Shown here: piece after piece, positions 10,192 through 45,228 of the stretch
How positions within the stretch are numbered: position 1 is the stretch's first letter
Layout of the letters: every line of letters begins with the position of its first letter
NCBI GenBank assembly: GCA_038045945.1
Contig: JBBSXC010000003.1
Span: 64,001-128,000, forward strand
DNA length: 64,000 nucleotides
Source: Nanobdellota archaeon
Lineage (GTDB): Archaea > Nanobdellota > Nanobdellia > Pacearchaeales > GW2011-AR1
Direction: 5' to 3'
The notes under the pieces: generated by a model
What the model was told of the DNA's origin: nothing
Database searches by the model: none
The model's input: only the letters and a program-made list of their open reading frames with translations
Translations under genes and position numbers: made by a program

Positions 10192-11787
10192 ATGACGACT
10201 ACAGATGCTCCTGTAGATATGGATGTAAAGAATAAAGTATTCTATGAAGAAGTAAGAGCTAGTTTAGGAGGAAAATTACCATTAAGTTTAGGAAGTAGCA
10301 GATTAGAACAAGGAGAGGGAGGAAGACTAGTAGTAGTATTCCCTAATGAAGTATACAAAGCAAGAGCTAATGATTACGGTCAAGAACTAAGAAGAGGACT
10401 AAGAAAAGTAGGGGGAGGAGAGGACTTATACTTAGGAGTTGACAAAAATATGCTTGATTCAGGAAGAAGACTAGCATCATCATACCTGTCAGGATTAGAA
10501 GAAGCAACAAACACAGAACCTGCAGAAAAAACAGTAAGAATTGTTGTTAGACCAAAAGACGAACTATTAGTGGTTAGGTCGCAAACAACAAAACAAAAAT
10601 CATTAGAAACAACAGCAACAAAATACCAGTTATTACCAAAACCAGAAACAATAATGAAGTATGAAGGAAACAATTACGCAGTAGACGTAACAAGAAGGAT
10701 AGCAGAATTAGCATCATCGCCAAAAGAAGTAAGAACAAACATAAAAAAAACATTAATTCACGGACCAAACGGGGCAGGAAAAACGGCGCTAGCAACAACA
10801 TTATGCTACAGTTTAGCAGAAGCAGGAATGACACCAGTATATTTGGACGTGCCGGGCCTGTCAGAGTTCTTAAGACATAACGCAAGAATGGCAGCAGCAA
10901 TAGCCGGAATGATGGGAGAACAAAAACCAATAATGAGAGAGTACGGACAATTAGAAAACTTAAGAGAAGCAGACTTATTAGTTTTAGACGGAATAGAAGC
11001 AACACTAAGGGGAGAAAAAGAAAACCGTCCGGGAGTAGAGGCAATCCTAAGAGCAGCAATAGACGCATCAGTAGCAAGAAACATACCTGTATTAGCACTA
11101 TACAGGGGGACGGGGGAAACACTCAAAGCGTACATATCAAGAATGAAGTTTGGGGAAGGAGGAAACAAAGACTTAGCAGACAGACTAGAAGAATTCGTAA
11201 GGGTGCCAATGCATTTACCATCAGGAAGAGAAAGAGGAGGACTAATGAAAGACTTACTAATAACAGAACACGGATTTAGCGAGCAAGCAAGCCAAGAAAT
11301 ATCAAGAGCGCTAGGAGAAAACTTTGGAAGCGAATCAACCTTGAGAGAAATAAGAGGATCAGTAGCATCAGCAGTAAACTACATAAATTTTGTTGGAGGA
11401 GAAAAACCAGACTATTACACACTAGCAAGTAAAGCACTAAAAGGAACGGCAGGACTGCAAGGATTACTATTCGGAAAAAAAGTAGATACAGCAGAATTAT
11501 TCAAAGAAATAGAAAGAAGAACAGGAATAGCCAAAGCAAGCATGACAGGAAGAAAAGGAACAAGCGACGTGATAAACGCAAGACACGCATACGCAGCAAT
11601 AGCAAGAAAAGATGAAAGTTTAGGAGTAAGCGCAATAGCAAAACTATTAGGAAAAGATCATGGAACACTAAACAGCGCGTATGAAAGAATAGACCGGGTG
11701 TTAGGTTCAACAGAACAAGAAAAATTAAGTCTTAGAGACAAAGAATTATTAAGACTAATAAAAACACTAGAAGAAGCAAAAGCTTGA
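10192..11787 (+). CDS. dnaA: DnaA-like AAA+ replication initiator homolog (divergent)
   Basis: Domain I-like LVVVFPNE; Walker A GPNGAGKT; Walker B LLVLDG; 'DLADRL' Arg finger; sensor II 'TLREIRG'; domain IV 'ARHAYAAIARK..SLGVSAIAKLLGKDHGTLNSAYERI'. Confidence 0.8.
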   Translation: MTTTDAPVDMDVKNKVFYEEVRASLGGKLPLSLGSSRLEQGEGGRLVVVFPNEVYKARANDYGQELRRGLRKVGGGEDLYLGVDKNMLDSGRRLASSYLSGLEEATNTEPAEKTVRIVVRPKDELLVVRSQTTKQKSLETTATKYQLLPKPETIMKYEGNNYAVDVTRRIAELASSPKEVRTNIKKTLIHGPNGAGKTALATTLCYSLAEAGMTPVYLDVPGLSEFLRHNARMAAAIAGMMGEQKPIMREYGQLENLREADLLVLDGIEATLRGEKENRPGVEAILRAAIDASVARNIPVLALYRGTGETLKAYISRMKFGEGGNKDLADRLEEFVRVPMHLPSGRERGGLMKDLLITEHGFSEQASQEISRALGENFGSESTLREIRGSVASAVNYINFVGGEKPDYYTLASKALKGTAGLQGLLFGKKVDTAELFKEIERRTGIAKASMTGRKGTSDVINARHAYAAIARKDESLGVSAIAKLLGKDHGTLNSAYERIDRVLGSTEQEKLSLRDKELLRLIKTLEEAKA

Positions 11788-11850
11788 TTGTTACTACTGT
11801 TTAGTTACTTTAATCGTTAGGTTTATATAGTCTTTTTACTTGGGTTTCTT

Positions 11851-13191
11851 ATGGGAAAAAAGATTTTATACGGTGCCGGACTTGTAGCTGCTGGAATAAC
11901 TGGTTACTTAATAGGCAGTTCTAAAAGTGTTGATCCAGACGCAGAAGTTGAGCTTAAACATGGAAAACAAGACAATAACATGCTGCGTGAAAGCACACAA
12001 AGAGTTTCTCTTAGAGGACTTTCTAACGATAAAAAACTTTTAGAATCTCAACTTGATGATGCTAAAACTCTTATTGCTCAAAAAGACGCTGAACTTGCTA
12101 AATACAAACCTTTCCAGGACTCATTAAACATTGCATCATACATTAAGAAAGCTGGCAGTGATGTCCCTATTAGCGCACTTAAAGGTCTTGACGCTAACGG
12201 TGGTATAGCATACCTAGACAAAAACAGCGGTTCTTTATACGTTAATACTAATGATAAAATAGTTAGAAACACTGTTGGTTCTTCACCCTTAGCTATGGCT
12301 ATCACTGGGGGAAAAATGCCTGCTAAAAGTTGGGGTATGTGGGACAGCAGAGGCGGTAAATGGAAGGATGGTGAACAATTATCCTCAACTGATCATTCTT
12401 ACAGAGCTTTCGCTTTCGGAGACCCGCAAGGACACTCAATAATTTCAGTTATTGATGAAAAAAGCGGAGAAAACGTTGGTAACACAGCAGTATCAGGATC
12501 TATTGAAGATTACGGTTTAACAACTGGCAAAAACTCTGAAGGTAAAGAAGTTCCAATAATATGGACTTTAACACTTGTTAATCCTTTAGCAGGACTTAAA
12601 GGAGAAGTACAAAGAGAAATACTAGGACCTCAATTTTCAAACTTTAGAACCGCTCTAGAATTATACGGTGAAGGTAAAGGAAGAAAAGACGGTAATGGAC
12701 AACTTATCCCTTACGAACAATACGCTGAATCAATAACTCTTACTCAAGCACTTGGTGATGGTAGAACTGGCGGACTAATTGATATATTACAAAAAATTAA
12801 TGTTGATGGAGAATTAAGAAGAGGTGAGGAAGCTTCATACTTTGACGCAAAATTCAAAGATAGCACTAGTGTAACAACTGGTACTTTACAAAGTGTTCCT
12901 TTAAGAGCTAAACCGGGAATTACTAAATGGATTTCACCAATTAACAGACCAGGAAAAGTTAGAAGTATTATAGCTGAAGATGATCGTGTTGTTTACGAAG
13001 TAGAATTCGGGGATTACCCTGCCCAATACTCAGAATTCGTAAGAGAAAGCAACATTAACTCATGCAACACTACAAGCGCAGGAGAATTCTACGGACTAAA
13101 AACAATTATTAATTCAGAACCACTACCAACACTTGAAAAAGAAATAGAAAGAGTAGACCAAGAATACAACGAAAAACTTAAGGGAAAGTAA
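11851..13191 (+). CDS. hypothetical membrane-anchored protein with coiled coil and beta-rich domain
   Basis: 446-aa ORF; N-terminal hydrophobic helix; coiled coil LESQLDDAKTLIAQKDAELAK. Confidence 0.7.
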   Translation: MGKKILYGAGLVAAGITGYLIGSSKSVDPDAEVELKHGKQDNNMLRESTQRVSLRGLSNDKKLLESQLDDAKTLIAQKDAELAKYKPFQDSLNIASYIKKAGSDVPISALKGLDANGGIAYLDKNSGSLYVNTNDKIVRNTVGSSPLAMAITGGKMPAKSWGMWDSRGGKWKDGEQLSSTDHSYRAFAFGDPQGHSIISVIDEKSGENVGNTAVSGSIEDYGLTTGKNSEGKEVPIIWTLTLVNPLAGLKGEVQREILGPQFSNFRTALELYGEGKGRKDGNGQLIPYEQYAESITLTQALGDGRTGGLIDILQKINVDGELRRGEEASYFDAKFKDSTSVTTGTLQSVPLRAKPGITKWISPINRPGKVRSIIAEDDRVVYEVEFGDYPAQYSEFVRESNINSCNTTSAGEFYGLKTIINSEPLPTLEKEIERVDQEYNEKLKGK

Positions 13192-13197
13192 AAAAAA

Positions 13198-13874: not shown

Positions 13875-14378
13875 ATGGATTATAATAACCTGTTAATACA
13901 GTCATTAGCAATAATAGCACTAGGACTATTCGCTATTTCTTACCATGCTAAAGCTAGATGGAAAATATTGTTATTTCAAGCAATAGCACTATTATTTTGG
14001 ATTACGCACTTTTTACTGCTATCAGCATGGACTGGAGCATCAATGAACATAATCAACATCTTTGTTATAACATTACTGATATTTAAAACAAAGAAAAAAT
14101 GGATTAGAAGCAACATTACCCTTTACTCAATAATCTTAGTATTTATCATTGCAACAATTATAACTTGGCAAGGCTACTACAGCATTTTCGCTCTTTTAGG
14201 AATAATCTTTATGACTATTGCAAGATGGCAGGACAAAACTATAAACATTCGTTATTTAGCACTACTTGGAGGACTATTATGGATAATTTATGATTTATTT
14301 GCAGGAGCTTACGGTAGCGTAATAGCAGAATTAGTAATAGGCACATCAATAATAATATCAATATACAGGAATAAGTAA
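13875..14378 (+). CDS. YgjV-family inner membrane protein
   Basis: 'HFLLLSAWTGA' and 'WIIYDLFAGAYGSVIAE' are typical of YgjV. Confidence 0.8.
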   Translation: MDYNNLLIQSLAIIALGLFAISYHAKARWKILLFQAIALLFWITHFLLLSAWTGASMNIINIFVITLLIFKTKKKWIRSNITLYSIILVFIIATIITWQGYYSIFALLGIIFMTIARWQDKTINIRYLALLGGLLWIIYDLFAGAYGSVIAELVIGTSIIISIYRNK

Positions 14379-27868: not shown

Positions 27869-27932
27869 GATACAAAATAAACTCTTGCAAGAATACTATT
27901 TAAGTTTTTATGAAAAAACAGAGAAAAAATCA

Positions 27933-27950: not shown

Positions 27951-28026
27951 CAAAAAAATTTGTAAGACTAATAATTATCCAATTAGTATAGACAAGCTTT
28001 TAAAGTCAAAAACATTATTCACTATT

Positions 28027-28191: not shown

Positions 28192-28216
28192 AAACAATAA
28201 CTTTTTATTTAAGTAA

Positions 28217-28717: not shown

Positions 28718-28724
28718 AAAAAAT

Positions 28725-29285: not shown

Positions 29286-29309
29286 AAAAATGTCAAGATT
29301 TTAGGGTTT

Positions 29310-30062
29310 TTAAGCTTTTATTTTCTCAAAAAGTTTTGTTCCAATAAACATTGAAAGAACAACTAGGTCTAAAACAATTATTAAGTCAAGCCAAATACTG
29401 AAGTGAGAAACACCACCAAGAGCAGCCCTAAGGCCATCAATACAATAAGTTAAAGGATTAAGATAAGCAACAACTTTTAGAGCAGTAGGAGCAGAATCAA
29501 TAGGAAAGAGAGCGCCGGACAAGAAAAATAGTGGCATAATCAAAAAATTAATTATTAGAGGAAAAGCTTGCATGTCCTCTAAACGAGTTGCAATAGCAGT
29601 ACCAATAGCAGTGAATAATAACCCCATCATAACCATAAACAATATAGCAACAGGCAAAAGAGACCAATTAGTAACTTTAAAACCAACAAGTAAAGAAATA
29701 GCTAATATGAACACACCTTGAAATATTGAAACTGTCGCACCACCAATTGTTCTACCAAACATAATCTTCCACCTAGGAACAGGAGCAACTAGTGTTTCTT
29801 TAAGAAAACCAAACTGCCTATCCCAAATAATTTCAATACCATTAAACATAGCAGTAAACAAAATAGTCATAGCAATAATACCTGGAGCTAAAAACTGAAT
29901 GTAACTACCACCAACAGCTTTTTGAAAAATAGAGCCCATACCAAAACCCAAAGCTAACAAAAAAAGTAAAGGCTGACCTAAAGAACCAATCATTCGAGGC
30001 TTAGAACGCCAATACTTCTTAAGTTGACGAAGCCACATAGCATAAATGGGAGAAGTACTCAT
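29310..30062 (-). CDS. ABC-2 type transporter permease
   Basis: YIQFLAPGII, WDRQFGFLKETLVAPV, FLSGALFP, NPLTYCIDGLR. Confidence 0.93.
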   Translation of the reverse strand: MSTSPIYAMWLRQLKKYWRSKPRMIGSLGQPLLFLLALGFGMGSIFQKAVGGSYIQFLAPGIIAMTILFTAMFNGIEIIWDRQFGFLKETLVAPVPRWKIMFGRTIGGATVSIFQGVFILAISLLVGFKVTNWSLLPVAILFMVMMGLLFTAIGTAIATRLEDMQAFPLIINFLIMPLFFLSGALFPIDSAPTALKVVAYLNPLTYCIDGLRAALGGVSHFSIWLDLIIVLDLVVLSMFIGTKLFEKIKA

Positions 30063-30868: not shown

Positions 30869-31003
30869 GATAAAAACAAACAAATTAGCAGTTATTAAAG
30901 ATTATGAACATGAGGAGCATAACAAAGAATAATGAAATATTCATCATTAAGAAGTAGTTACTAAACGAAAGCCTTAAATAATGTTTAATGATCTAATAAA
31001 TTG

Positions 31004-32350: not shown

Positions 32351-32399
32351 TAGCGCTATTTTAAAAAGGTTTAAAAGGATAAAAGTCATTATTAATTTT

Positions 32400-33269: not shown

Positions 33270-33360
33270 AAAAACAACAAGTTTTATTAATCTAAGATAT
33301 CAACATTAACTATCTGAGGTGTTAGCATTTCAGAGGCTTATTCTGAAAAGGAAAAAATTA

Positions 33361-33960
33361 ATGAAACCAACACTACACATAGTACACCCATACACTTACA
33401 AAGTTAAAGGAGACACTTTACTAGGAGGACCATTCCCAGAATTTAGAGAAAGAGACGAAAAAATATCACTATTAGTAAGAAGAGCAATAAAAAATGGTAC
33501 AGTAATGAGGCATTACAGTAACCCTATGGTTTCAGGGGAAGGATTTTCAGAATTAGGATGCTTACTATTTGACCCATTATTCAAGTGGAGCGTGAATAAA
33601 AAAATAATTGATTTGACAACAAGCTCAGGAGTACCAATTTCTGATGTCAGACCTGAAAAAATAAGTCCAGAAGACTGGGAAATATGTAAAAGACATTGGA
33701 CTACAAAAAAAGAACTTGCGAGGATAGTTAGTGATTCATCACCAAACGTTTTTATTGGAGGATACTTAGAAAACTGCGTTACTAACGCAGTAGGATACCA
33801 CCAAAAAACTTTTAGGAAAAAAGGAGAAGTAGCTTATTATGTTCCAGAATTATGTGCAAGAAGCCCAGATAGTTCGTGGGATGAAATAAAACCAAAACTA
33901 GAAGCTCTGGACGCTAAAGAAATAAGTTTTGAAAAAGCTTTAGGATTATTCGTACCTTAA
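33361..33960 (+). CDS. hypothetical protein, possibly cysteine-hydrolase (isochorismatase)-like fold
   Basis: 'NVFIGGYLENCVTNA' resembles the G-x4-CV motif. Confidence 0.5.
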   Translation: MKPTLHIVHPYTYKVKGDTLLGGPFPEFRERDEKISLLVRRAIKNGTVMRHYSNPMVSGEGFSELGCLLFDPLFKWSVNKKIIDLTTSSGVPISDVRPEKISPEDWEICKRHWTTKKELARIVSDSSPNVFIGGYLENCVTNAVGYHQKTFRKKGEVAYYVPELCARSPDSSWDEIKPKLEALDAKEISFEKALGLFVP

Positions 33961-35160
33961 AGCCTTAACAGTTACAATCTTAGCCGCTCTCATAGCAGGG
34001 AAGGCTCCGCTTATTGCGCCTATTAAGAATGAGAATAATAAGCAAGAGACTATAAGCCACCAAGGAATAGCAGCAGCGAGCAGGTTAGTGCCTAAAAAGT
34101 TCACAGCAATAAATTCTAAAGATTTAGCTAAAAATATTCCTAAGACTACACCTATTGCTCCACCAACTAGGCCGATCATACCAGCCTCAATAATAAAGAT
34201 AGTAAGAATAGAAGAGTTTCTAGCACCTATTGCTTTCATAACACCAATCTCTCTAGTTCTTTCAACAACAGAAGTATACATGGTGTTAGCAATACCTACA
34301 GCACCAACAACTAAAGAAATACCAGCAATACCCAAAAGGAAACCAGTAACAATAGACAAAATACTACCAAAACTCTTAAGTATTTCTTCAGGAGTCATAA
34401 TATTAAAATCCTGATTTTTTTCAGTAACACCCCTATACTGCCTAAGCCTCTTCTCAACCTTCAAAGCAACATCTTTAACATCAGCACCAGGACTAACCTG
34501 AACAGTTACGTAATCAACACGATCATCACTAATATTAAACAAATCCCTAGCAACACTGTCAGGCATGTAAATGTTTTTGTCATCCGCCGGATTACCAATT
34601 CTAGCCATTATCCCACGAACCTTAAACCTTTTATCATTAATCTTAATTGAATCACCAACTTTTACAGGAACAGTGAAAGCTTTACTATAAGAATAATCAT
34701 AACCCAGACCAACATCTGCCTCATCACCAACCATTAAAGCCCTACCATCTTTAACCTTAAACCCGCCAGACTCAAAATAAAGATCAGCTGTTTCCAAATC
34801 AATACCAATAACTATGTTAAACCTTACTTCATTATTAAACTCTAATTTTGCGTTACCAACAACCATGTAAGTAACCTTCTTCACTCCAGGAACCTTACCT
34901 ATTTGCTCGACATCATCAAGAGTGAAGTGAGCACCAGTATCAGTCCCAGGAGGGCCATTATTACCACCAGCACTAACAAAAAACTTGTCAGTGCCCAATT
35001 GACGGAACTGTTCCGTAACAGCATTCTGCAAACCTAAAGACAAACTAATAAGAATAAAAATTGTTGCAATAGAAATAAAAATACCAATCATAGTAAGCCA
35101 TGAACGAACCTTCCTACGCTTAAGATTATTAGTAGCTAAAAAAAAGTAGTCTTCAATCAT
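33946..35160 (-). CDS. ABC transporter permease (MacB/FtsX family)
   Basis: RSWLTMIGIFI, GIANTMYTSVVERTREIGVMKAIGA, ALRYE. Confidence 0.92.
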   Translation of the reverse strand: MIEDYFFLATNNLKRRKVRSWLTMIGIFISIATIFILISLSLGLQNAVTEQFRQLGTDKFFVSAGGNNGPPGTDTGAHFTLDDVEQIGKVPGVKKVTYMVVGNAKLEFNNEVRFNIVIGIDLETADLYFESGGFKVKDGRALMVGDEADVGLGYDYSYSKAFTVPVKVGDSIKINDKRFKVRGIMARIGNPADDKNIYMPDSVARDLFNISDDRVDYVTVQVSPGADVKDVALKVEKRLRQYRGVTEKNQDFNIMTPEEILKSFGSILSIVTGFLLGIAGISLVVGAVGIANTMYTSVVERTREIGVMKAIGARNSSILTIFIIEAGMIGLVGGAIGVVLGIFLAKSLEFIAVNFLGTNLLAAAIPWWLIVSCLLFSFLIGAISGAFPAMRAAKIVTVKALRYE

Positions 35161-36374
35161 GATCTTAAAGCCTCCACAGGACTCATCCTAGAAGCCTGTA
35201 TTGATGGAACTATACCAGCAAGTATACCAATAACAAAGGCGAAAAGAGCAGAAAAAATAAGCAAAGGAAAGGATATTTTAACACCAAGATTAAGTCCTGG
35301 CAAAAGAGCCCTAACAGCAGCTGAAGCAGTAATAGCGATTAATAAACCAACAATAGCACCGACAACACCTCCAACAAAACCCATAAGTCCTGATTCAATA
35401 ACAAAAATCTTTATTATATCAGAATTCTTAGCACCAATAGCTTTCATAACACCAATCTCCCGCTTACGCTCAAGAACAGAAGTATATAAAGTGTTAGAAA
35501 TACCAATACCACCAATAAGCAAAGAAATAGTAGCAATACCAACAATAACCAAGTTGATCATGTTAAGAATAGTATTAATAGAACTTAGTGCTTGTTCAGG
35601 AGTCTGAACAGAAAAATCTTCCTTACCCTCTTCCAGCCCCCTATCATCTCTCATAGCATTCCTAATATTATCAGAAACAACTTTGGTCTTATCTTTATCA
35701 CTAACCTGAACAGCAATCAAGTCATGCTCATCACCAAGACTTAATAGTTCCCTCATATCGCTCTCACTCATAAGAACAACAGAATTAACAGTAAAAGTAC
35801 TAGCTCTCTTTAATACACCAACAACATCAAACATTTTACCAGAAATATTAACAGATTTACCAACACTTATCTTTTTATCAAACTTATCATAAGCAATAAA
35901 GTCATTACCCAAAACCACTTTACCACGATCATTACCAGATATTAGCCTACCCTGCTCAACAATAATAGTAAAACTATCATAAATAAAATCTTCACCGCGC
36001 TTATCCTTAGGAATAGAAGCAAGATAAGAAAAAGTCCCAATCTCATTATACTCAAACTTTACAGTCCTAATAACCCTAGGAACAACCAAAGAAACATCAG
36101 AAACACTCCTAATAACCTGCACATCATGATCATTAAGCTTCTTAATAACAGTAGAACCCGGAGGACCAAAACCAGTCTCAGCATTCTGAACAACAAGCCT
36201 ATCAGGAGCAAGATCAGAAAACTGACCAGTAACAGCTAGTCGTAAACCATCACCTAAAGAAATAAGAGAAACAACAGCAGCAATACCAATCATAACACCA
36301 AGTATAGTAAGCCAAGAACGAAGACCCCTATGCTTAACAGACTTAAAAGCAAGAATAAAATAATCACCAATCAT
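35157..36374 (-). CDS. ABC transporter permease (MacB/FtsX family)
   Basis: RSWLTILGVMIG, GISNTLYTSVLERKREIGVMKAIGA, PVEALR. Confidence 0.92.
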   Translation of the reverse strand: MIGDYFILAFKSVKHRGLRSWLTILGVMIGIAAVVSLISLGDGLRLAVTGQFSDLAPDRLVVQNAETGFGPPGSTVIKKLNDHDVQVIRSVSDVSLVVPRVIRTVKFEYNEIGTFSYLASIPKDKRGEDFIYDSFTIIVEQGRLISGNDRGKVVLGNDFIAYDKFDKKISVGKSVNISGKMFDVVGVLKRASTFTVNSVVLMSESDMRELLSLGDEHDLIAVQVSDKDKTKVVSDNIRNAMRDDRGLEEGKEDFSVQTPEQALSSINTILNMINLVIVGIATISLLIGGIGISNTLYTSVLERKREIGVMKAIGAKNSDIIKIFVIESGLMGFVGGVVGAIVGLLIAITASAAVRALLPGLNLGVKISFPLLIFSALFAFVIGILAGIVPSIQASRMSPVEALRS

Positions 36375-36428
36375 AAAAAAGGATAATCATCAAGCCTTAA
36401 AAATCTAATCAAAAAAGAAAATAAAGCC

Positions 36429-36722
36429 TTATTCAGACTTACTAGAATCATAACGATAACCCATGTTCTTCAAATCAGACTTATAAAGTTCAGAAACACG
36501 CCTAAGATCATGACTTATAGAACCAGAATTAGCAACACTCCCATCAGGACTAACAAAAAACTTATCAACATCAGCCTTATCATGAACAATCTTTTCTAAA
36601 CCACTAAAAAGAAAAATAATAGAACCAACACCAAAAGCTAAAAGAACAGATTTAGCAATAGAAGAGATAGCAAGATCATAAACCTCACTAAAACCATAAG
36701 AGTCGCCACACTTATTTACCAT
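36429..36722 (-). CDS. hypothetical single-TM protein
   Basis: 97-aa ORF with upstream TATA-like element. Confidence 0.55.
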   Translation of the reverse strand: MVNKCGDSYGFSEVYDLAISSIAKSVLLAFGVGSIIFLFSGLEKIVHDKADVDKFFVSPDGSVANSGSISHDLRRVSELYKSDLKNMGYRYDSSKSE

Positions 36723-36796
36723 AAAACAAAAGCTATTTCAAAGTATTTAAAACTTACTACTTGTAACTACTAAAGAATAACACATATTAATTGATT

Positions 36797-37375
36797 TTAC
36801 ATTCCTTTCTTCTTTTTTAACAAATCAATAATTTTTGGTGAAACAGAGGGCTTTCCATCAATAAGAGGATAACGATAAGGGAGAATTATTGATTCTACAT
36901 CATTAATCCTAACTTCCAACCTATCGCGAAATTTTAGTTCACCAAAAACTTTTTTGTTATTAACAATTTTGTTAACAACCCACACCGCATTATCGGTTGA
37001 TAATTGTTTATCACCAATATTACGAATATCAGCATCTGGCAAAAACTGCGTTAGTTCCTTATTAGTACGCTTCTTAGGAGGATAATCACCTAAGATGCCG
37101 CCAAAAACAAAAAATTTGAATTTTGCGGAATCATCAGGACTCAAGAGTTGATCAGCTTGAGGATCAAGAACACAAGAATAATTAAGACTCATCTTACTAA
37201 CAGAATCCTTAAACACTTTACCAAACTTAGAAATTTTAGACCTATCAGTTTTTGACTTAACATTTGTTAACCACAAATTATCCTTTCCAACAATTGAAGA
37301 AATTCTCTCATACTCAATAAGAACCCACTTAGAAACTCGCGGTTCCAAATGCTCAATAACAAATACGGCACTCAT
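36797..37375 (-). CDS. SPOUT methyltransferase, Sfm1/DUF431 family
   Basis: VIEHLE, W..IEY, VLDP, FGGILGDYPP..RT, RNIGDKQLSTDNAV. Confidence 0.88.
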   Translation of the reverse strand: MSAVFVIEHLEPRVSKWVLIEYERISSIVGKDNLWLTNVKSKTDRSKISKFGKVFKDSVSKMSLNYSCVLDPQADQLLSPDDSAKFKFFVFGGILGDYPPKKRTNKELTQFLPDADIRNIGDKQLSTDNAVWVVNKIVNNKKVFGELKFRDRLEVRINDVESIILPYRYPLIDGKPSVSPKIIDLLKKKKGM

Positions 37376-37623
37376 CTTTTAGCCCTTATACTAGCTAAGT
37401 AATCACTCTTACTAACACCATTCTTAGGAACAACGTAAACTTTTGAACCTATCTGCAATCTATCACCAGGCATAACAAAACTCCTTATCTCTCCATCAGG
37501 ACCACCAATGATTAATCCACCACTATGAGAAGAATAATTTAGTCCGCCAGCAATCTCACCATTAAGAGTCGTAACCAGGCCTATCTTACCTTCAAGATCA
37601 TTAACAGTCAATACTGAAACCAT
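37372..37623 (-). CDS. hypothetical protein
   Basis: 83-aa ORF whose stop overlaps the SPOUT gene start (ATGA). Confidence 0.55.
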   Translation of the reverse strand: MVSVLTVNDLEGKIGLVTTLNGEIAGGLNYSSHSGGLIIGGPDGEIRSFVMPGDRLQIGSKVYVVPKNGVSKSDYLASIRAKR

Positions 37624-37669
37624 AAAAATAACAACAAAAACACTATTTTTATACTTTATTAATAATAAG

Positions 37670-37819
37670 TTACTTTCTTTTCTTCTTAGAACCAGACTTC
37701 TTCCTTAAAGACTTAATAACTTTTTTAACAGTTTTCTTTTTACCTTTAAACAATTTCATAAACTTCTTAATTTTAGAATGCCTAGTCTTTTTCTTATTAC
37801 GCTTAACTCTTTTTGCCAT
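37670..37819 (-). CDS. small ultra-basic protein (49 aa)
   Basis: MAKRVKRNKKKTRHSKIKKFMKLFKGKKKTVKKVIKSLRKKSGSKKKRK. Confidence 0.6.
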   Translation of the reverse strand: MAKRVKRNKKKTRHSKIKKFMKLFKGKKKTVKKVIKSLRKKSGSKKKRK

Positions 37820-37839
37820 TGTTCTTTTTTTGATTTTAA

Positions 37840-38070
37840 AGAGCTGACGATCTGGACTCAGTGAGGAGTGCCTCAACCGGTTCGGATTAATGTGCTTAAC
37901 CTCTCCGCCAGTTATTAAAGGTTATCTCCGTCGTGCTTGTGATGTGCTTAATGAGTACAGGTTTCATAAAGCGAGTTATAGTCCAGTCGCTAAATTAATT
38001 GTTAGCACCCAACATAGGCTTATACAAGTACATCCTTTCCAGGACAACTGATTTATCCCCAGTCAGCTCT
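37840..38070 (-). ncRNA. putative structured non-coding RNA of unknown family
   Basis: 9-bp terminal stem AGAGCTGAC/GTCAGCTCT; several internal hairpins whose G-U pairs favour the - strand; TATAAATA box at 38100-38093; more GC-balanced than flanks. Confidence 0.65.
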
Positions 38071-38177
38071 AAAATAATTCAAGACTAAGAAGTATTTATA
38101 GTTGACTTACCACTAAAGAATTACTAGAAAAAGGGCTTTTTGACAAAACTTAAAAACCTGCGATTAGTAAATAATTC

Positions 38178-39404
38178 ATGAGAAGACACCTAACACCAGT
38201 AGGAACAGGAGTTAGCCTAGGATCAATGATCGTACCTAACGAATTCTTAGCAGGACTAGAAGTAGTTGACTTCAAAAAAGGAGCACTAAACCCCGGTGAA
38301 ATAAGCACTCTAACAGTTGAAATAATGCAAAAAGCAAGCGGGGGCGACATGAGCAAAGACGGAAAAGGAGAACTAAAGGGAGATGGAATAGGAATAAAAT
38401 CAAGAAGATGGCTAAGACCCGTAGGAAAAAAAGAAGAACTAAAAGATTTAGCAATTAAAGCAGCAATTAAAGCAGTAGAAAGCACAGGAATGGACCCTAA
38501 AGAATACTTATCAGAATTAAAAGTAATAATGTCAGCCCACGAAAGCAGGATACCAAAATACCCAACACTAGCACAAAGAGTACAAGAAGGACTAACAGAA
38601 CATTATGGAATAAAACTAAACATTGATTACGCACAAAACACATCTTTTGCTTGTGCAGGATTCCCAATAACACTACTAACAGCAAACGCATTAGTAAGAG
38701 CAGGAGAAGTAAACGGTAACGTATTAGTAGTTGGAGCAGAAGACGTTAAAGGCCTGGTAAGAAAAACAAAGGAAGGAAGATACGACGTGAGCATTTACTT
38801 ATTCGGAGTTGGAGCAGCAGCGATGGCATCAAAAACAACAACAGAAGAACACGGAGCACAAACACCAGGATACGTCAAAAGCATGCCCTACATGTCAGAA
38901 GTAGAAAGAAAGGCAAGAATGAGCAATAGTGCAGCATTATATGACGATGTTGACACACACATAACAATGGCTGATGGAGCATTAGTAAAATCAGGAGCAA
39001 TAGACTACATGAGAAGATCAATTATTGATCAAATAAAGAAACACAACCCTAAAGGAGAGAGAAGAGTAGTTGTTTGCCCACACCAAGCTAACGGAAGAAT
39101 CAACGGACCACTAGAAAGAGATTTAAGAAGAGAAGGAATACTAAGAATTACAGACTTATACTACGCTTCCGGACTAGAAGATAATGGGAACATATCAGTA
39201 CCAGCATGCCTAACAGGATTTGACTCTATGGTAAGAGGACAAGACTACCAAAGAAGAGCAGTTAGAGAAGGACAAATACTGCCTAACGACCTAGTAATAA
39301 TAACAGCAGTAGGAGCAGGGATGAGCGGATCAGCAGCATCAATAATAATGCCGCCAAAAGCATTAGCTTACATGCCAGAAATGGTAAGAAGACAATACTC
39401 ATAA
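38178..39404 (+). CDS. fabH: beta-ketoacyl-ACP synthase III (FabH)-like protein
   Basis: GIKSRR, catalytic Cys in FACAGF, VLVVGAE, LFGVGAAA, PHQANGRI (His), GNIS (Asn), AVGAGMS. Confidence 0.85.
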   Translation: MRRHLTPVGTGVSLGSMIVPNEFLAGLEVVDFKKGALNPGEISTLTVEIMQKASGGDMSKDGKGELKGDGIGIKSRRWLRPVGKKEELKDLAIKAAIKAVESTGMDPKEYLSELKVIMSAHESRIPKYPTLAQRVQEGLTEHYGIKLNIDYAQNTSFACAGFPITLLTANALVRAGEVNGNVLVVGAEDVKGLVRKTKEGRYDVSIYLFGVGAAAMASKTTTEEHGAQTPGYVKSMPYMSEVERKARMSNSAALYDDVDTHITMADGALVKSGAIDYMRRSIIDQIKKHNPKGERRVVVCPHQANGRINGPLERDLRREGILRITDLYYASGLEDNGNISVPACLTGFDSMVRGQDYQRRAVREGQILPNDLVIITAVGAGMSGSAASIIMPPKALAYMPEMVRRQYS

Positions 39405-39455
39405 AAAAACATTTTTGAGTAAGTTTATTAAGTAAATCTAAGTTTTAAAATAATT

Positions 39456-40142
39456 ATGAAAGAGGACAAAACTGATAAGCGCTGGCTTTACGCAGGAATA
39501 ATATTCTTGTTATTATTCGTACTAACAACTACCAGTGTAACTAAAGGATTATTTTCGGAAATTGATAAATTAACAATAGAAAGAGTATCACTATACCACA
39601 CAAACTTTTTAACATCACTATTCATAATTTATCATTATGCATTCAAAACATCAACATTAGTAATAATAACACTGTTAATGTCAGCAACATTTTATTTACT
39701 TAAAAAGAAGAAAGAAGCAATAACTTTTGCTGGGATAATGATAATTGATGCATTAGCATTATACTTGACAAAAACATTCACTAATATAATAAGACCACTA
39801 GGAAGCATCGTTACAGAATCAACATTATCATTCCCTAGCGGTCACACTACAAGCGCAATAGTATTCATAGGATTATCAACCTACATGTCAATAAAGTACC
39901 TAAGAGGAGAATGGTCTAAAACAAGAATACCATTAGTCTTAGAAATGATAGCACTAAGCATATTCGTAGCTTACTCAAGATTATACCTAGGAATACACTG
40001 GTTTAGCGACATAATAGGAGGAACATTCCTAGGACTCACAATACTATCAATAGGAATATTTATACTAGAAGAAGAAAACATAGGAAAAAAGTTATCACAA
40101 AAAACAAATACGCTTAGAAAGAAAATAATAAGCCATCAATAA
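39456..40142 (+). CDS. PAP2-family membrane phosphatase
   Basis: KxxxxxxRP, SFPSGH, SRLYLGIHWFSD. Confidence 0.92.
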   Translation: MKEDKTDKRWLYAGIIFLLLFVLTTTSVTKGLFSEIDKLTIERVSLYHTNFLTSLFIIYHYAFKTSTLVIITLLMSATFYLLKKKKEAITFAGIMIIDALALYLTKTFTNIIRPLGSIVTESTLSFPSGHTTSAIVFIGLSTYMSIKYLRGEWSKTRIPLVLEMIALSIFVAYSRLYLGIHWFSDIIGGTFLGLTILSIGIFILEEENIGKKLSQKTNTLRKKIISHQ

Positions 40143-40499
40143 CCTTAAGGGGAAACTAGTATTTTTCTTAAAAATCATTTCTCTAGGAAAAAAATATGAA
40201 GCTTTTTGCCCATCAATAAGCTTATGAGAAGGATGATTACGACCAATATTCACCCTAAAAACATAAAACCTTTTAAAAAATAAAGAAAAACAAAAAAATA
40301 GGTTAGGAGTTGATGAAAGCTTAAGCTTATACTCCTCTAAAAGTTCCCTCTTCAAAGCAATAAGAGGTTTCTCTCCTTTTCTTAAATGACCGCCAAAAAG
40401 ACCCCACTTAGAAGGAAAAGTATCATCATCCTTAGAACGAAGCTGAAAAAGACACTTATGGTCACTCCTTTCTATAATAACACCAGCATAATCAGACAT
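40095..40499 (-). CDS. NUDIX hydrolase
   Basis: WGLFGGHLRKGEKPLIALKRELLEE Nudix box. Confidence 0.85.
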   Translation of the reverse strand: MSDYAGVIIERSDHKCLFQLRSKDDDTFPSKWGLFGGHLRKGEKPLIALKRELLEEYKLKLSSTPNLFFCFSLFFKRFYVFRVNIGRNHPSHKLIDGQKASYFFPREMIFKKNTSFPLRLLMAYYFLSKRICFL

Positions 40500-40560
40500 A
40501 GAAATAAAACATTAATATTAGTATAATAAACCTTTTATACCAAATTTTTGTTAATAATGA

Positions 40561-40962
40561 ATGAAAACAGAATGGACACATGGAGGAAGAAGGGAAGTAA
40601 GTAATAAACCAAAAAAAGGGTATGATACCCCACAGTCTCTAGAAGGATGGGACTATGTTCTAGCCAGAGACGGAGAAACAGTACTATGCGCTTATAACCC
40701 CCAAATGCAAGAATTAAGAGTTAATAATGACACAGACAACGATTTAGGAGAAATAATTGCGGACTTAGATGAAAGACCAGGATGCGCAGACTTTTTAGTA
40801 TCATTATTAAGTTTAAGAAGACCAGAACCAACTTTTGAAAGAGAATTCGGAGTAACAATCGATGAAAGACTATACTCTAGAGACGGAAGACTAGTAAAAG
40901 CAGGAGTACTAAAACCAGAACAAAAACAATTAGTAAGAAGTGGAGGAATAACAACTGATTAA
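40561..40962 (+). CDS. hypothetical protein
   Basis: 133-aa ORF with upstream TATA-like TTTTATA. Confidence 0.6.
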   Translation: MKTEWTHGGRREVSNKPKKGYDTPQSLEGWDYVLARDGETVLCAYNPQMQELRVNNDTDNDLGEIIADLDERPGCADFLVSLLSLRRPEPTFEREFGVTIDERLYSRDGRLVKAGVLKPEQKQLVRSGGITTD

Positions 40963-40964
40963 CA

Positions 40965-41441
40965 ATGAAGATAATAAGTCCAGCATTCACACATGGAGAA
41001 GAAATGCCAACAAAGTACACAGTAGAAGGAGAAAACATTTCACCACCACTAATAATAAGCGAAGTACCGCAAGGAGCAGCATCATTACTACTAATAGTTT
41101 ATGACCCTGATATACCAAAATACGTAAAAGAAAGGTTTAGCATAAAAGAATGGACTCATTGGGTATTATTCAATATTGACCCAAAAACTATGGAAATACC
41201 CGAAGGTATAGAACCACACTCACATCTTGCTAATCAAGGAATGAACACTAACGGAAAAGCAGGATGGGGAGGACCAAACCCGCCAGACGGAAGACACAGA
41301 TACGCATTTAGACTATACGCACTAAACAAAAAAATATTGATGAATGACGGAGCAACAAGAGAAGGAATAGAAAAAGCAATGGCCAGCAGCGTAATAGCAC
41401 AAACAGAAATGATGGGAACTTATGAAAAACGCAATAAGTAA
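40965..41441 (+). CDS. YbhB/YbcL (PEBP/RKIP) family protein
   Basis: GENISPPL, DPD, WTHWVLFNI, GPNPPDGRHRY.F.LYAL. Confidence 0.92.
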   Translation: MKIISPAFTHGEEMPTKYTVEGENISPPLIISEVPQGAASLLLIVYDPDIPKYVKERFSIKEWTHWVLFNIDPKTMEIPEGIEPHSHLANQGMNTNGKAGWGGPNPPDGRHRYAFRLYALNKKILMNDGATREGIEKAMASSVIAQTEMMGTYEKRNK

Positions 41442-41526
41442 GACGTTTTTCAACTATAAAAATTCAAAGACAAGAATTTTTACACTAAGACAAGAAAAAC
41501 AAATAAAGTTATTAAATTCTTAAAAA

Positions 41527-42012
41527 TTACTTAACTTTTACACCGTCAATTGTAACGCCACCAATAATAGCGCCGTTTGATGGAACAGGCTCACAATGAT
41601 TCTTTACAGGTTGAGTTATAAGCATTAATATGATAGCTCTCCTTCTTTGCTCTTCCATTTCTTCAGCAGTTAAAACACGAGGCTCATAATTAGAAACTGG
41701 AGCGTTAAGAGCACCGCCGATTTTTATTCCACCAATTTGAGCATGTGATGAACCATCAAGATAAAGAGAACCCCTAATGTTTTCGTCATAGGTATTAACT
41801 GGTCTACCACCATTAGAGAAAATAGAACCAGGAACGTAGTCTTTACCAAGAACCACTTTACCAGAATAATTATTTAGGCCACTAACAACAGGTCTTTGGC
41901 TAACAGGAGAATCTTTTTTAACATAATCAGAATTAGCACTTACGCAAGAAGCTAACAATAAAGGTGCAACTAAAATTTTACTAACTAAACCAAAATTTGT
42001 ATCCCTAACCAT
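41527..42012 (-). CDS. hypothetical lipoprotein-like protein
   Basis: 'KILVAPLLLASC' lipobox-like signal. Confidence 0.55.
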   Translation of the reverse strand: MVRDTNFGLVSKILVAPLLLASCVSANSDYVKKDSPVSQRPVVSGLNNYSGKVVLGKDYVPGSIFSNGGRPVNTYDENIRGSLYLDGSSHAQIGGIKIGGALNAPVSNYEPRVLTAEEMEEQRRRAIILMLITQPVKNHCEPVPSNGAIIGGVTIDGVKVK

Positions 42013-42107
42013 AAAAAAAGGCACATTTTATCATACTTAAACCTTTCTAATTATAAAACAACAAATCTACTATCAAGCTTTAAAAACATGAATAAACTAA
42101 AAAAATC

Positions 42108-42857
42108 ATGGGGCTGATAAAACTATCATCAATTCTAATAATAACTTTAGTAATGGTTTCTTTAATAATAAGCCTAAACATATCATTAGGGGTTAAACAG
42201 TTATTATACCCACAACTATACGAAAAAGCAATAGAAAAAATAAACATAAACAAACTATTAGGAGAAGGCGGAACAAACATCACTTATAACGTAAGCGGAC
42301 TCTTAACACAAATAATAGAAAAATCATTAAGTTACGTAAGAGGAGAGTCAGAAAGAGAAAACTTATACTTAGAAATAGAAAAAAATATTACTCCAGAAGG
42401 AAGACTACAACAAAAAATTAATGTTTTAGACTTATTCGACAAAGAAGGAACATTAACAAACGCGAAAACTTACGTAAACTATTACAATAAAGGGATATTA
42501 TTAATAGAAGGACTAATATTATTCTTAACAATAATAATCTTACTTATTAACGGAAAAAACTTTAATTCATCAATAAGGTGGGTAGGAATAGCGCTAATTA
42601 TTGCCGGGATAATAGTAATAATTATTTCAAGCATAATAGGAAACCTCTTATACACACAAATATCTACGAGTTTCCCGATAATTCAGCCAGGAATAACACA
42701 ATTAATAACTCCAATATTCCACGCAATAAAAATTAACGGAATAATAACACTAATAATAGGATTCTTAATGCTGATAACACCAATATTTTTACCTAACAAA
42801 AAAGAGAAAGAAGAACCAGAAGAGAAAAAAAGTGTTAAGGTAACAAAAACTAAATAA
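42108..42857 (+). CDS. multi-pass membrane protein
   Basis: N-terminal TM plus 3 C-terminal TM segments. Confidence 0.7.
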   Translation: MGLIKLSSILIITLVMVSLIISLNISLGVKQLLYPQLYEKAIEKININKLLGEGGTNITYNVSGLLTQIIEKSLSYVRGESERENLYLEIEKNITPEGRLQQKINVLDLFDKEGTLTNAKTYVNYYNKGILLIEGLILFLTIIILLINGKNFNSSIRWVGIALIIAGIIVIIISSIIGNLLYTQISTSFPIIQPGITQLITPIFHAIKINGIITLIIGFLMLITPIFLPNKKEKEEPEEKKSVKVTKTK

Positions 42858-43188
42858 CTAACTTATTAGTTATCCTGCGATTAACTTCCTTATCCAAAGT
42901 ACCTATAAAGAATCCTTCCTGCGACTTGGCAATTAATGACTCATTTGTAGGACCATGACCCATATCAACCCTCTTAAACCTTTTATGGTCACCGAATAAT
43001 TCTAAAGCTTTTTTAGCTAAATCATTATCTCCAACACCAGACTTAACACTGTTAGCAATATCTTTTAATTCATTAAGAATAATCTTAGAAACCCTTATTT
43101 TGTAACCTTTAGACTCTATACTAGTAATGAATGAGTCACCATTTTTCATATGATTCATGATGAATCCAGTATCAATTATTGCTTGCAT
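42850..43188 (-). CDS. PIN-domain protein (Fcf1/Utp23-like)
   Basis: AIIDTGFI, ILNELKDI, IGTLDKEV. Confidence 0.7.
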   Translation of the reverse strand: MQAIIDTGFIMNHMKNGDSFITSIESKGYKIRVSKIILNELKDIANSVKSGVGDNDLAKKALELFGDHKRFKRVDMGHGPTNESLIAKSQEGFFIGTLDKEVNRRITNKLVI

Positions 43189-43222
43189 AAAACTATTAAA
43201 GCTTAACAGGTTTATAATACTA

Positions 43223-43732
43223 ATGGTTAAAGAAAAAAAGGTGTTGAGAAAGATACTAAAAGTACCATACGATAAACAAAAAACTGATTATACTTGCGGG
43301 CCAGCAAGCCTAAAAATGATTTTAGAATTTTTCGGAATAAAAAAACCAGAAATAATATTAGCACACCAAGCACACACAAAGAAAAAAACAGGAACAACTC
43401 ATGAGCAAATGATTAACCTAGTAAGAAGAGAAGGATTATACTGCTATGTACATAACCAGTCAAACATTAACACAATAAAACACTTCATAACTGCAGGATT
43501 ACCAGTAATAATAAGCTTCAAAAATCCCGAGGATAAAGAAGGACATTACGCTGTTGCAATAGGTTACAATAAAGGAATAATAATCTTAAATGATCCTTGG
43601 AACGGAAAAAACTTCAAAATAGATGACAAAGTACTAAAAAAATTTTGGGTTAGCGAAAACAAAGGAAAAAAGAGCATAATAGTAATATCAAAAAAACCAA
43701 TAATCAGAGGAAAACAGTACAACCCATTATAA
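43223..43732 (+). CDS. peptidase C39-like protein
   Basis: Q..DYTCGPASL, GHYAVAIG, LNDPW catalytic motifs. Confidence 0.88.
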   Translation: MVKEKKVLRKILKVPYDKQKTDYTCGPASLKMILEFFGIKKPEIILAHQAHTKKKTGTTHEQMINLVRREGLYCYVHNQSNINTIKHFITAGLPVIISFKNPEDKEGHYAVAIGYNKGIIILNDPWNGKNFKIDDKVLKKFWVSENKGKKSIIVISKKPIIRGKQYNPL

Positions 43733-43745
43733 TAACAGATAATAA

Positions 43746-44051
43746 TTAACCGGTTCTAGAATTATTATAACTATCAGCTATTCTTTCAAGTATAATCCTA
43801 AAGTTTCTTCTGTCATACCAATCAAGAAGAAATTCTTCACCCTTACGCTTAACATAATCATGAACATTACGACGATCAGTACCAAGCTCTTTAGCAATAC
43901 GAGAAGAGCTATAACCAAGACTTATCATTTCATCTTTACGAGTATTATCAATGTGACCATACCACGGAAGATTCCTAAAATTTCTTACAGTACGTAAATC
44001 AACCTTCCCATCAACACGAATCCTGTAAGCCTTTGCACCAAAACTTACCAT
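43746..44051 (-). CDS. small HTH protein
   Basis: GYSSSRIAKELGTDRRNVHDYV. Confidence 0.6.
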   Translation of the reverse strand: MVSFGAKAYRIRVDGKVDLRTVRNFRNLPWYGHIDNTRKDEMISLGYSSSRIAKELGTDRRNVHDYVKRKGEEFLLDWYDRRNFRIILERIADSYNNSRTG

Positions 44052-44145
44052 AAAAAAGATGATTATTAAAACTTATTAAACTTTTTGATAATAGAAAAAG
44101 TACAATACATTAAAGCTTTTATAGGCCTAGTAATTAACAAAAAAG

Positions 44146-45228
44146 ATGTCAGGTCACACACCAAAAAAAGTAAGAATATATGTTGATGCAATTGGAGGAG
44201 ACACAATAACTGGGAAGGACGGAAAAGAACAAAAAATTGAAGAAAGAGTAGTTAGGGCATCATTGGAATTCTTAGATGAACACAAAGAGGCAAGAATCAT
44301 CCTAGGAGGAGACAGAAAACTTCTTGAAGGAATGGTTGATGGAAGCGACAGAATAGAAGTCGTTGATGGTAGAGCAACACCCTATGGGATTAGTGCCATA
44401 CGTCGAGAAAGAAAGGGCACAGCACTCTATAAAGGTCTTGAAATGTTAGAAGCAGGCGATTGTGACGGATTATACACATCAGGAAACACTCAAGCAGTAG
44501 CGGTTTATGTTGCTACAACAATTGGAAGGTTTAAAGGGATTAAATCAATGCCCCTAGTAGCAAGACTACCGAAAAAAGGAGAAAAACCAGTATACCTCTT
44601 GGATGTTGGCGGAGGAACAGATAATCTGGATGTTAACGGATTTAGAGACTTAGCATTATTAGCACATGCTTATTGTAAGGCTGTGGCAAAAGTAGACAAT
44701 CCAAGATTAGGCTTATTATCAATAGGTAAAGAACCTGAAAAAGGCGGACCAACAATAACAGAAGTAGATAAGAAGTTAAGAGAAACCAGATGTATAAACT
44801 ATAGCGGTTTAGTAGAACCTAAAGACTGGATGATGAAAGAATATGAAGCTGTAATATCCAACGGGTTTGTTGGCAACATCGGGATAAAAACAATCGGAGG
44901 AACGGTTATTCTTGCAAAGAGCGAAATAAAAGAAGCATTAAACAAATATCCAGTTAGAAAATTTTTAGCAAAAGCAATATTAGCGCCAGCGGCAGCAATG
45001 ATCTTAGGGCCAGTGTTTTATCCTCTAAAAGAAAAATATAACCCATCAAGAGCTAATGGTGCAGCATTATTAGTGCCCGGAGTCTTCATTAAGGGTCATG
45101 GGGAATCAGACGTTGAAGGAATACGCCGAGGACTTGGAGCAGTATCAGAACACGTAAATAAAGAAGTACCAAGAAGAATGAAAGAAGAACTAAAAATGGT
45201 AAGAGAACAATTAACAATAACAGAATAA
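44146..45228 (+). CDS. plsX: phosphate acyltransferase PlsX homolog
   Basis: YVDAIGGD, SGNTQA, LLDVG, PRLGLLSIGKEPEKG, GLVE, NGFVGNIGIKT, NGAALL, IKGHGES. Confidence 0.88.
   Translation: MSGHTPKKVRIYVDAIGGDTITGKDGKEQKIEERVVRASLEFLDEHKEARIILGGDRKLLEGMVDGSDRIEVVDGRATPYGISAIRRERKGTALYKGLEMLEAGDCDGLYTSGNTQAVAVYVATTIGRFKGIKSMPLVARLPKKGEKPVYLLDVGGGTDNLDVNGFRDLALLAHAYCKAVAKVDNPRLGLLSIGKEPEKGGPTITEVDKKLRETRCINYSGLVEPKDWMMKEYEAVISNGFVGNIGIKTIGGTVILAKSEIKEALNKYPVRKFLAKAILAPAAAMILGPVFYPLKEKYNPSRANGAALLVPGVFIKGHGESDVEGIRRGLGAVSEHVNKEVPRRMKEELKMVREQLTITE

Follow-up and report, generated by a model that had tools for sequence, protein, structure and literature searches.

It is already known that DPANN archaea carry genes of bacterial ancestry. 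In the parts of the survey by Castelle et al. (2021; PMC8204110) consulted here, sigma-70 genes are described as prevalent in Woesearchaeota, where they occur without anti-sigma factors, and bacterial fatty acid genes are reported for some DPANN; the words DnaA, PlsX and FabH are absent from its main text. The consulted sections of Coleman et al. (2019; PMC6431249) report that no PlsX homologues were found in Archaea. For DnaA, the accessible portion of a 2026 preprint covering 208 complete genomes of the phylum gives no dnaA at KEGG thresholds (bioRxiv 10.64898/2026.05.13.725050), and archaeal DnaA is not mentioned in the consulted part of a review of archaeal initiation (PMC11880632). Here we analyzed a window of 64,000 nucleotides, the whole stretch under study, from the genome of a Nanobdellota archaeon (G000:C3:64001-128000, on the 252-kb contig C3). 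It carries genes for a DnaA-like protein (P0001), an extracytoplasmic function (ECF) type sigma-70-like protein (P0002), a FabH-like protein (P0003) and a PlsX-like phosphate acyltransferase (P0004). Literature searches for DnaA with DPANN, PlsX with archaea or DPANN, and FabH with DPANN gave no description of these genes.

Our preferred reading, to which we give a probability of roughly 60%, is that the four genes have bacterial ancestry, were acquired separately and are now ordinary residents of a small, host-dependent DPANN-like archaeon, and that they do not form one system. The initial annotation had described them as strongly diverged homologues of bacterial machinery with the local codon style and TATA-like elements. 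This description was supported, and the genes are also intact and ameliorated and have the promoter geometry of the host. Only the DnaA-like and the PlsX-like genes go beyond printed knowledge; DPANN sigma-70 homologues have been described before, and P0002 adds nothing new to them.

Four genes of bacterial type in an archaeal genome

The source genome (G000) comprises 847,022 bases in 7 contigs and is 93% complete with 1% contamination; genomes of near relatives span 0.4-1.3 Mb. These small sizes, together with the NCBI label Candidatus Pacearchaeota of a DnaA-like relative, would suggest a DPANN archaeon. The archaeal context noted earlier was confirmed. A two-repeat TATA-binding protein (TBP) gene lies on the same contig as the window and an Orc1/Cdc6 gene on another (C4), and the window itself holds TrmB, an Sfm1-like methyltransferase, a TyrRS (NF006330, 395 bits; cut-off 220) and a polyprenyl synthase. 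An intron-bearing tRNA had also been claimed, which remains unconfirmed because ARAGORN and Rfam gave no tRNA in the window. Relatives were searched in three samples. The 40 nearest genomes, searched with single proteins, comprised 24 members of the family, one of them a 79%-complete congener, and 16 members of the order. The phylum sample contained 150 further genomes with a completeness of 95% or more, and its counts are given without G000. The order sample contained 400 genomes, 355 of them from the window's own family.

Among 463 open reading frames (ORFs) of G000, codon preference places the DnaA-like gene at the 95th, the sigma gene at the 44th, the FabH-like gene at the 99th and the PlsX-like gene at the 57th percentile, in agreement with the local codon style that had been noted for all of them. 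TATA-like hexamers start at -31 to -27 from the ATG in 203 of 496 ORFs, with 12-43 ORFs in the other 5-nt bins. This peak suggests that transcripts of G000 may be mostly leaderless. The TATA elements reported before the four genes lie at the modal position of the genome (-29/-28) for the sigma (-29), FabH-like (-29) and PlsX-like (-28) genes, while the hexamers of the DnaA-like gene are off the mode. The four genes are intact, with frames open over 186-531 codons, use the codons of the host and stand behind a TATA element of the host's leaderless type.

P0001 is a real DnaA homologue, as had been annotated, but is recognisable only by profile and fold. It reaches 26.2 bits against Bac_DnaA_C (cut-off 31.5) and 46.7 bits against TIGR00362 (cut-off 343.9), the latter over residues 368-511 only, and the Bac_DnaA ATPase model gives no match. 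Searched alone, P0001 matches no PDB sequence; a BLASTP comparison with a near-canonical DnaA is not significant, and a word-based search returns only P0001 itself. With phmmer, run exhaustively over 1.84 billion representatives, 25 proteins at E ≤ 0.001 were obtained, including P0001, with a best identity of 29%. Among the 18 of these proteins that were aligned, Bac_DnaA_C was found in 16, DnaA_N in 4 and the canonical DnaA ATPase domain in 2; one relative is labelled Candidatus Pacearchaeota by NCBI. When a profile of nine divergent relatives was compared with the PDB, the six best matches were DnaA chains. The match to 8btg_A (E 8.9e-31) consists of two stretches (12-226 and 298-443), and the profile covers DnaA domains I and IV, the lid and the first part of the ATPase. 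The AlphaFold 2 model (pLDDT 77), whose input alignment contained DnaA relatives, displays a four-part layout with a domain I-like part (5-87), a disordered linker (88-147), an AAA+ part (150-417) and a DnaA-type C-terminal helix-turn-helix (431-530). A fold search with this model placed DnaA chains at all of ranks 1-11. Model, profile and fold search agree on the four-domain architecture of DnaA.

The motifs GPNGAGKT (191-198), DLADRLEE (327-334), TLREIRG (383-389) and GKDHGT (487-492) align with the family. By eye, we take the first three to be the P-loop (Walker A), the arginine at the Box VII position and the sensor II arginine. Walker B is presumably LLVLDG, an aspartate followed by glycine, so that one acidic residue would be present and the second absent. 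Most likely, P0001 is a regulator or accessory factor that binds ATP and recognises specific DNA sequences. It would bind ATP and hydrolyse it poorly, and it would bind specific double-stranded DNA, with Orc1/Cdc6 remaining the chromosomal initiator beside it.

Alternatively, though we consider this unlikely, P0001 could be the replication initiator for a mobile element, integrated or former, or for a second chromosomal origin of bacterial type. Its four-domain architecture with putative ATP- and DNA-binding motifs would fit such a role, as would its sporadic distribution and its neighbours, many of which are ORFs without a family. Bac_DnaA_C is found in 15 of the 400 order genomes, all within the window's family (15/355). 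The setting of the gene argues against it. No origin setting with clustered DnaA boxes beside dnaN was recognised: a search for four or more exact 9-mers clustered within 800 bases, which would miss degenerate boxes, gave nothing near the gene, and the AT skew does not change sign across the 252-kb contig. Neither an integrase nor a tRNA was found nearby. A comparison of P0001 and its nine neighbours with PHROGs gave no viral family beyond weak matches, namely of P0001 to DnaC-like proteins and of the ORF at 7722-9077 to DNA-binding families. The codon adaptation at the 95th percentile also speaks against a mobile element or second origin, and so does the position of a relative, which lies between tRNA synthetase genes of an archaeal metagenome contig. 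In the comparison of the locus with the congener only a 65-base match was found, which does not establish synteny.

Several genomes of the window's family, and one archaeal metagenome contig, carry long ORFs that contain the C-terminal domain of DnaA. The family genomes with Bac_DnaA_C include ORFs of 429-554 aa, and one has a near-canonical DnaA that may be contamination. The latter is a full-length ORF (L070, G542:C15, 409-1764) with 319 bits against TIGR00362 (cut-off 343.9), and it represents either bin contamination or a recent transfer. The metagenome contig (L065) is 100 kb long and carries TFE, leucyl-tRNA synthetase and alanyl-tRNA synthetase. Its DnaA-like ORF (9245-10732) runs in one frame throughout but for a single TAG at 9887-9889, which may reflect a pseudogene, a variant or read-through.

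P0004 is a real and full-length PlsX homologue, as annotated. It scores 118.8 bits against PF02504 (FA_synthesis; cut-off 29.1) over residues 10-343 and aligns over its full length (residues 9-351) with PlsX of B. subtilis (1vi1, E 4.9e-31). The equivalog model TIGR00182 gives 155 bits, below its cut-off of 243. Its closest relative is P0031 with 51% identity, and the two pair in a PlsX tree of 61 sequences (LG+G4) with an SH-like approximate likelihood ratio (SH-aLRT) of 99. A locus search of the genome contigs gave no relatives of P0004 or P0031. The pathway partners are missing: acyl carrier protein (ACP; PF00550), PlsY (PF02660) and PlsC (PF01553) were not found in the 93%-complete G000, and neither was the bacterial sliding clamp DnaN, in line with the lack of bacterial partners noted initially. 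Because ACP, PlsY and PlsC were not found, the FabH-like and PlsX-like enzymes appear to be without their usual partners. DegV, acetate kinase and the archaeal geranylgeranylglyceryl phosphate synthase were not found in G000 either. A role of P0004 as a phosphotransacetylase feeding acetate kinase was considered and lost support, since acetate kinase was not found.

In another family (f12), synteny around the PlsX-like gene is conserved and includes the genes for an ATP-dependent DNA ligase and for a Hel308-like helicase of archaeal type, and dN/dS values of 0.14-0.18 were obtained within one genus of that family. At a further locus (L038, G188:C2, 8085-10876) a PlsX-like gene and a gene for a 436-aa FabH-like protein are divergent neighbours, and two GNAT acetyltransferases, a DUF192 protein and an EamA transporter follow 3' of the PlsX-like gene.

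P0003 is likewise a real FabH homologue that has kept the diagnostic Cys-His motifs. It scores 86.2 bits against the FabH subfamily model NF006829 (cut-off 249) and 75.2 bits against TIGR00747 (cut-off 292), in both cases below the curated cut-off. The alignment with FabH of S. aureus (1zow, E 3.9e-10) includes the cysteine (FACAGF) and histidine (PHQAN) motifs. P0003 has Cys159, His302 and Asn338, the residues Cys-His-Asn in a thiolase fold; the asparagine (DNGNIS), 36 residues after the histidine, was placed by eye, as were some 40 additional residues that follow the N-terminal strand. The ACP partner is missing here too. In a phylogenetic tree, P0003 falls inside 3-ketoacyl-ACP synthase III (KAS III), away from an archaeal outgroup resembling hydroxymethylglutaryl-CoA (HMG-CoA) synthase (SH-aLRT 100), with an end branch of 2.04 and without a resolved partner. 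The highest identity that it reaches with any protein is 27-30%, and it is the sole thiolase-fold match to the FabH model in G000. We also considered an ordinary archaeal HMG-CoA synthase. No such NCBIfam match was obtained, and the tree splits P0003 from the HMG-CoA-synthase-like outgroup. In the 40 nearest relatives P0003 has a single FabH-like match (L010, G035:C45; 31% identity), which contains two in-frame TAG codons.

Judged from sequence, the FabH-like protein, the phosphatase of the PAP2 superfamily encoded next to it and the PlsX-like protein most likely work on scavenged acyl lipids, or else on acyl-CoA or acyl-phosphate, without ACP. FabH-like and PlsX-like proteins may form a loose functional pair.

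P0002 passes the cut-off of TIGR02937 (sigma70-ECF; 57.7 bits, cut-off 42.9), with residues 17-176 aligned to positions 2-163 of 165, and this confirms the ECF sigma homologue of the initial annotation. The model covers both regions 2 and 4 at superfamily-level score. Sigma70_r4_2 matches with 42.8 bits (cut-off 25.7) and region 4 of SigW in the PDB with an E value of 2.5e-5; Pfam gave no region-2 match for P0002. The gene had been called solitary, which does not hold, as a second locus over the cut-off was found at C5:57844-58548. P0002 would belong to the DPANN sigma-70-like family. As bacterial RNA polymerase is not expected in this host, its most likely role is that of a DNA-binding regulator of the helix-turn-helix type.

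Distribution among relatives and alternative explanations

Clear orthologues of the four copies of G000 are lacking in the sequences of its 40 nearest relatives. The DnaA-like protein has one weak match, in its ATPase part only, the sigma-like protein three, all of them weak, the FabH-like protein one and the PlsX-like protein none. In the phylum sample, the sigma family exceeds its cut-off in 57 of the 150 genomes (58/151 with G000) and PlsX in 8, of which 7 are among the 16 genomes of family f12. The FabH model is matched at E ≤ 1e-5 in 30 of the 150, some of these matches being HMG-CoA-synthase-like because archaeal control genomes match the model too. Bac_DnaA_C occurs in three genomes, all as short ORFs, and neither PlsX nor FabH was found in these three. 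Homologues of P0004 were found in 7 of the 400 order genomes, with 23-35% identity. None of the 150 other phylum genomes carries all four families, and PlsX and the DnaA domain overlap in only one of the 400 order genomes. The proposal that the four genes form one system is not supported by these counts. The idea of old acquisitions kept under selection stands in part: the sigma family is widespread (58/151), 14 of the 16 DPANN-labelled PlsX rows group together and dN/dS is 0.14-0.18 within one genus of another family, but the copies of G000 have no clear orthologues in the 40 relatives.

On a contig of the congener (G001:C7), orthologues of the ORFs at 27910-28191, 36797-37375, 40965-41441 and 42108-42857 lie side by side. 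This block also holds a lysine-rich small ORF and a conserved non-coding element and is without the sigma and FabH-like genes, which have no orthologues in the congener. Two stretches lack collinearity with the congener, namely 28.2-36.8 kb, with the sigma gene, the ABC-2 pair and the MacB pair, and 38.18-40.96 kb, with the FabH-like gene, the PAP2 phosphatase and an ORF of 133 aa. No direct repeats were found bounding either of them. Orthologues of the MacB pair are located on another contig of the congener.

Several points weigh against separate acquisition and simple residence. In the PlsX tree, 14 of the 16 DPANN-labelled rows group together with an SH-aLRT of 93, which would suggest a shared or old history; this value is below the reliability mark of 95, long-branch attraction is possible and the DPANN label of P0031 is assumed. 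Long residence is suggested by the DnaA-like and FabH-like genes, whose codon adaptation is very high. Co-occurrence of PlsX-like with FabH-like genes exceeds base rates, with a FabH-like match in 4 of the 8 PlsX genomes compared with 30 of 150 overall, and the two genes are 4.7 kb apart in the window; PlsX and Bac_DnaA_C are together in the order genome G341. Since the MacB orthologues lie elsewhere in the congener, the difference at 28.2-36.8 kb is partly a rearrangement and no clean insertion. The lack of orthologues rests on incomplete metagenome-assembled genomes (MAGs), with the congener at 79%, and the sampled relatives behind the genome counts are not independent of each other. Finally, the domain I-like fold that the model of P0001 appears to have kept would fit an initiator as well as a regulator.

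Unlikely, in our view, is that the genes are decaying relics of transfer without current function. Long branches, with an end branch of 2.04 for the FabH-like protein, are consistent with decay, as are scores far below the equivalog cut-offs and the lack of BLASTP significance between P0001 and a near-canonical DnaA. The apparently degenerate acidic pair of Walker B in P0001 and the in-frame TAG in the relative on the metagenome contig point in the same direction. Decay is contradicted by frames that are open over 186-531 codons with catalytic and binding motifs apparently kept, by high codon adaptation and promoters at the modal position, and by the low dN/dS of the PlsX-like clade in another family.

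An equally improbable reading is that P0001 represents a resident DPANN subfamily of four-domain DnaA. It might then work as an ATP-dependent DNA-binding switch beside Orc1/Cdc6, either as a second initiator at a bacterial-type origin or as a factor on the DnaA boxes of a bacterial host, and the DPANN PlsX-like clade, at times beside a FabH-like protein, might mark an ACP-free route by which archaea handle acyl lipids of bacterial type.

We give far less credit to the co-retained set proposed initially, whose members would have been repurposed jointly or would be exported as effector mimics that target a bacterial host at replication, transcription and the entry to lipid synthesis. It is true that all four genes are intact, ameliorated and natively promoted without their bacterial partners, and that the searched lipid pathway genes were not found in G000, as expected of a host-dependent cell. 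The set itself is contradicted by the 150 phylum genomes, none of which has all four families, and by the dispersal of the genes over 35 kb among unrelated neighbours. Nothing was found that supports mimic effectors. By crude hydropathy, no N-terminal signal-like segment was detected except in the FabH-like protein, where, by eye, we take the hydrophobic segment to be the fold's own N-terminal strand. The housekeeping setting of the PlsX-like gene in another DPANN family, beside an archaeal helicase and a DNA ligase, also argues against this reading.

An origin of the genes in the assembly can be judged from the sequencing runs, which are all from one groundwater study and two of which may be the source of the assembled DNA itself. 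Contigs of 61,296 bases each from two runs cover positions 27000-46900 of the window with zero differences, their depth staying flat at 19.5 and 12.6. A third run contributes pieces that span the junctions at 27512-28982 and 36947-38715. The even coverage, put forward initially as a check, was therefore seen over this region, and a chimera is unlikely because of these contigs and bridges. Chimeric assembly or bacterial bin contamination, for which one could cite the nature of G000 as a MAG and the possible contaminant DnaA (TIGR00362, 319 bits) in another MAG of the family, is hardly credible given the TBP gene on the same contig, the archaeal genes interspersed among the four, their host promoter geometry and codon usage, and the per-run contigs with their bridges.

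Neighbouring features of the window

The features of the window are collected in Table 1. The sigma gene follows an ABC-2 transporter pair. Both lie in the stretch of 28217-36722, together with two MacB/FtsX permease genes in tandem and several ORFs that have no family. On the 3' side of the sigma gene lies a convergent ORF of 166 aa, also without family.

Table 1. Coordinates of the four bacterial-type genes, their TATA-like elements and other features in the window
Feature	Position	Strand	Length	Remark
DnaA-like P0001	10192..11787	+	531 aa	
ECF-type sigma-70-like P0002	28725..29285	-	186 aa	
FabH (KAS III)-like thiolase-fold P0003	38178..39404	+	408 aa	
PlsX-like phosphate acyltransferase P0004	44146..45228	+	360 aa	
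TATA-like hexamers, DnaA-like gene	10157..10172	+		-35/-34 and -25 from ATG, off genomic mode
TATA-like hexamers, sigma gene	29308..29314	-		-29/-28 from ATG; overlap stop codon of upstream ABC-2 permease
TATA-like hexamers, FabH-like gene	38149..38155	+		-29/-28 from ATG
TATA-like hexamer, PlsX-like gene	44118..44123	+		-28 from ATG
ABC-2 permease	29310-30077	-		directly upstream of sigma gene, same strand
ABC-2 ATPase	30059-30883	-		pair adjoins sigma gene upstream, same strand
PAP2-superfamily phosphatase	39456..40142	+		directly 3' of FabH-like gene; PF01569 54.4 bits
Non-coding element (candidate structured RNA)	37842-38070	+	~230 nt	between lysine-rich small ORF and FabH-like gene
TrmB	3103-3858			confirmed
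Sfm1-like methyltransferase	36797-37375			confirmed
YgjV-like inner-membrane protein	13875-14378			bacterial-flavoured family
C39-like peptidase	43157-43732			bacterial-flavoured family

The non-coding element beside the FabH-like gene is the best-conserved DNA in comparison with the congener (77-79% identity) and was found in 11 of 60 relatives from five families of the order. Changes on both sides preserve the pairing in 26 of the 52 predicted base pairs, and the fold has a z-score of -2.74. No Rfam family was assigned to it, here or in nine homologous loci, and the candidates for the signal recognition particle RNA and the RNase P RNA of G000 lie elsewhere. We regard the element as a candidate for a new structured RNA.

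Along each whole contig of G000 (7 contigs) the AT skew is strong, one-signed and largely independent of gene strand. It ranges from -0.02 to +0.49 on C3, C4 and C5, where a single 10-kb bin is at -0.02 and the rest are positive, and is negative on C1, C2, C6 and C7. No switch occurs within 252 kb or 304 kb, even near orc1/cdc6. A cluster of repeated 9-mers at G000:C4:187388-187921, about 5 kb from orc1/cdc6, is a candidate replication origin.

Comparison with known systems

Our results add a divergent four-domain DnaA-like family, which recurs sporadically in the archaeal family of the window and stays under the database thresholds that give no dnaA, and a PlsX-like clade, which exists in DPANN despite the 2019 report of none and is under purifying selection in one genus. 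Both are concrete proteins with which folds of the bacterial core machinery can be tested in an archaeal cell that is without their partners.

P0002 is likened by description to the DPANN sigma-70 homologues (fam00359) in the consulted parts of PMC8204110. It has the ECF-type fold in a TBP-bearing archaeon, and, as in those cases, no anti-sigma factor was recognised beside it. In contrast, it has only weak relatives in 3 of the 40 nearest genomes and follows an ABC-2 pair.

P0003 shares with FabH/KAS III (S. aureus 1zow) the thiolase fold with Cys, His and Asn and groups with KAS III. It differs in its score below the subfamily cut-off (86 versus 249), in the approximately 40 extra residues and in its neighbour, which is a PAP2 phosphatase instead of fabD, fabG or acpP, in a genome in which no ACP was found. 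P0004 aligns over its full length with PlsX of B. subtilis (1vi1), has the conserved glycine-rich motifs and scores above the Pfam cut-off. Unlike that PlsX, it stays under the TIGR00182 cut-off, belongs to a mostly DPANN group of the tree and resides in a genome in which PlsY, PlsC and ACP were not found.

Compared with bacterial DnaA (8btg, 2z4r, 2hcb, 1l8q), P0001 is far below the TIGR00362 cut-off (46.7 versus 343.9 bits), is apparently without the second Walker B acid and occurs in a host that has Orc1/Cdc6, in which no dnaN was found and no box-like repeat cluster lies near the gene. It has the same four-domain order, and it appears to share the P-loop, the arginines at the Box VII position and in sensor II, and the C-terminal helix-turn-helix motif. 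DnaA-like AAA+ proteins of the fusellovirus type are not known to have the DnaA C-terminal DNA-binding domain, which P0001 has, and no viral family was found around the gene of P0001. What P0001 has in common with these proteins of archaeal viruses is that both are DnaA-related ATPases in archaeal settings.

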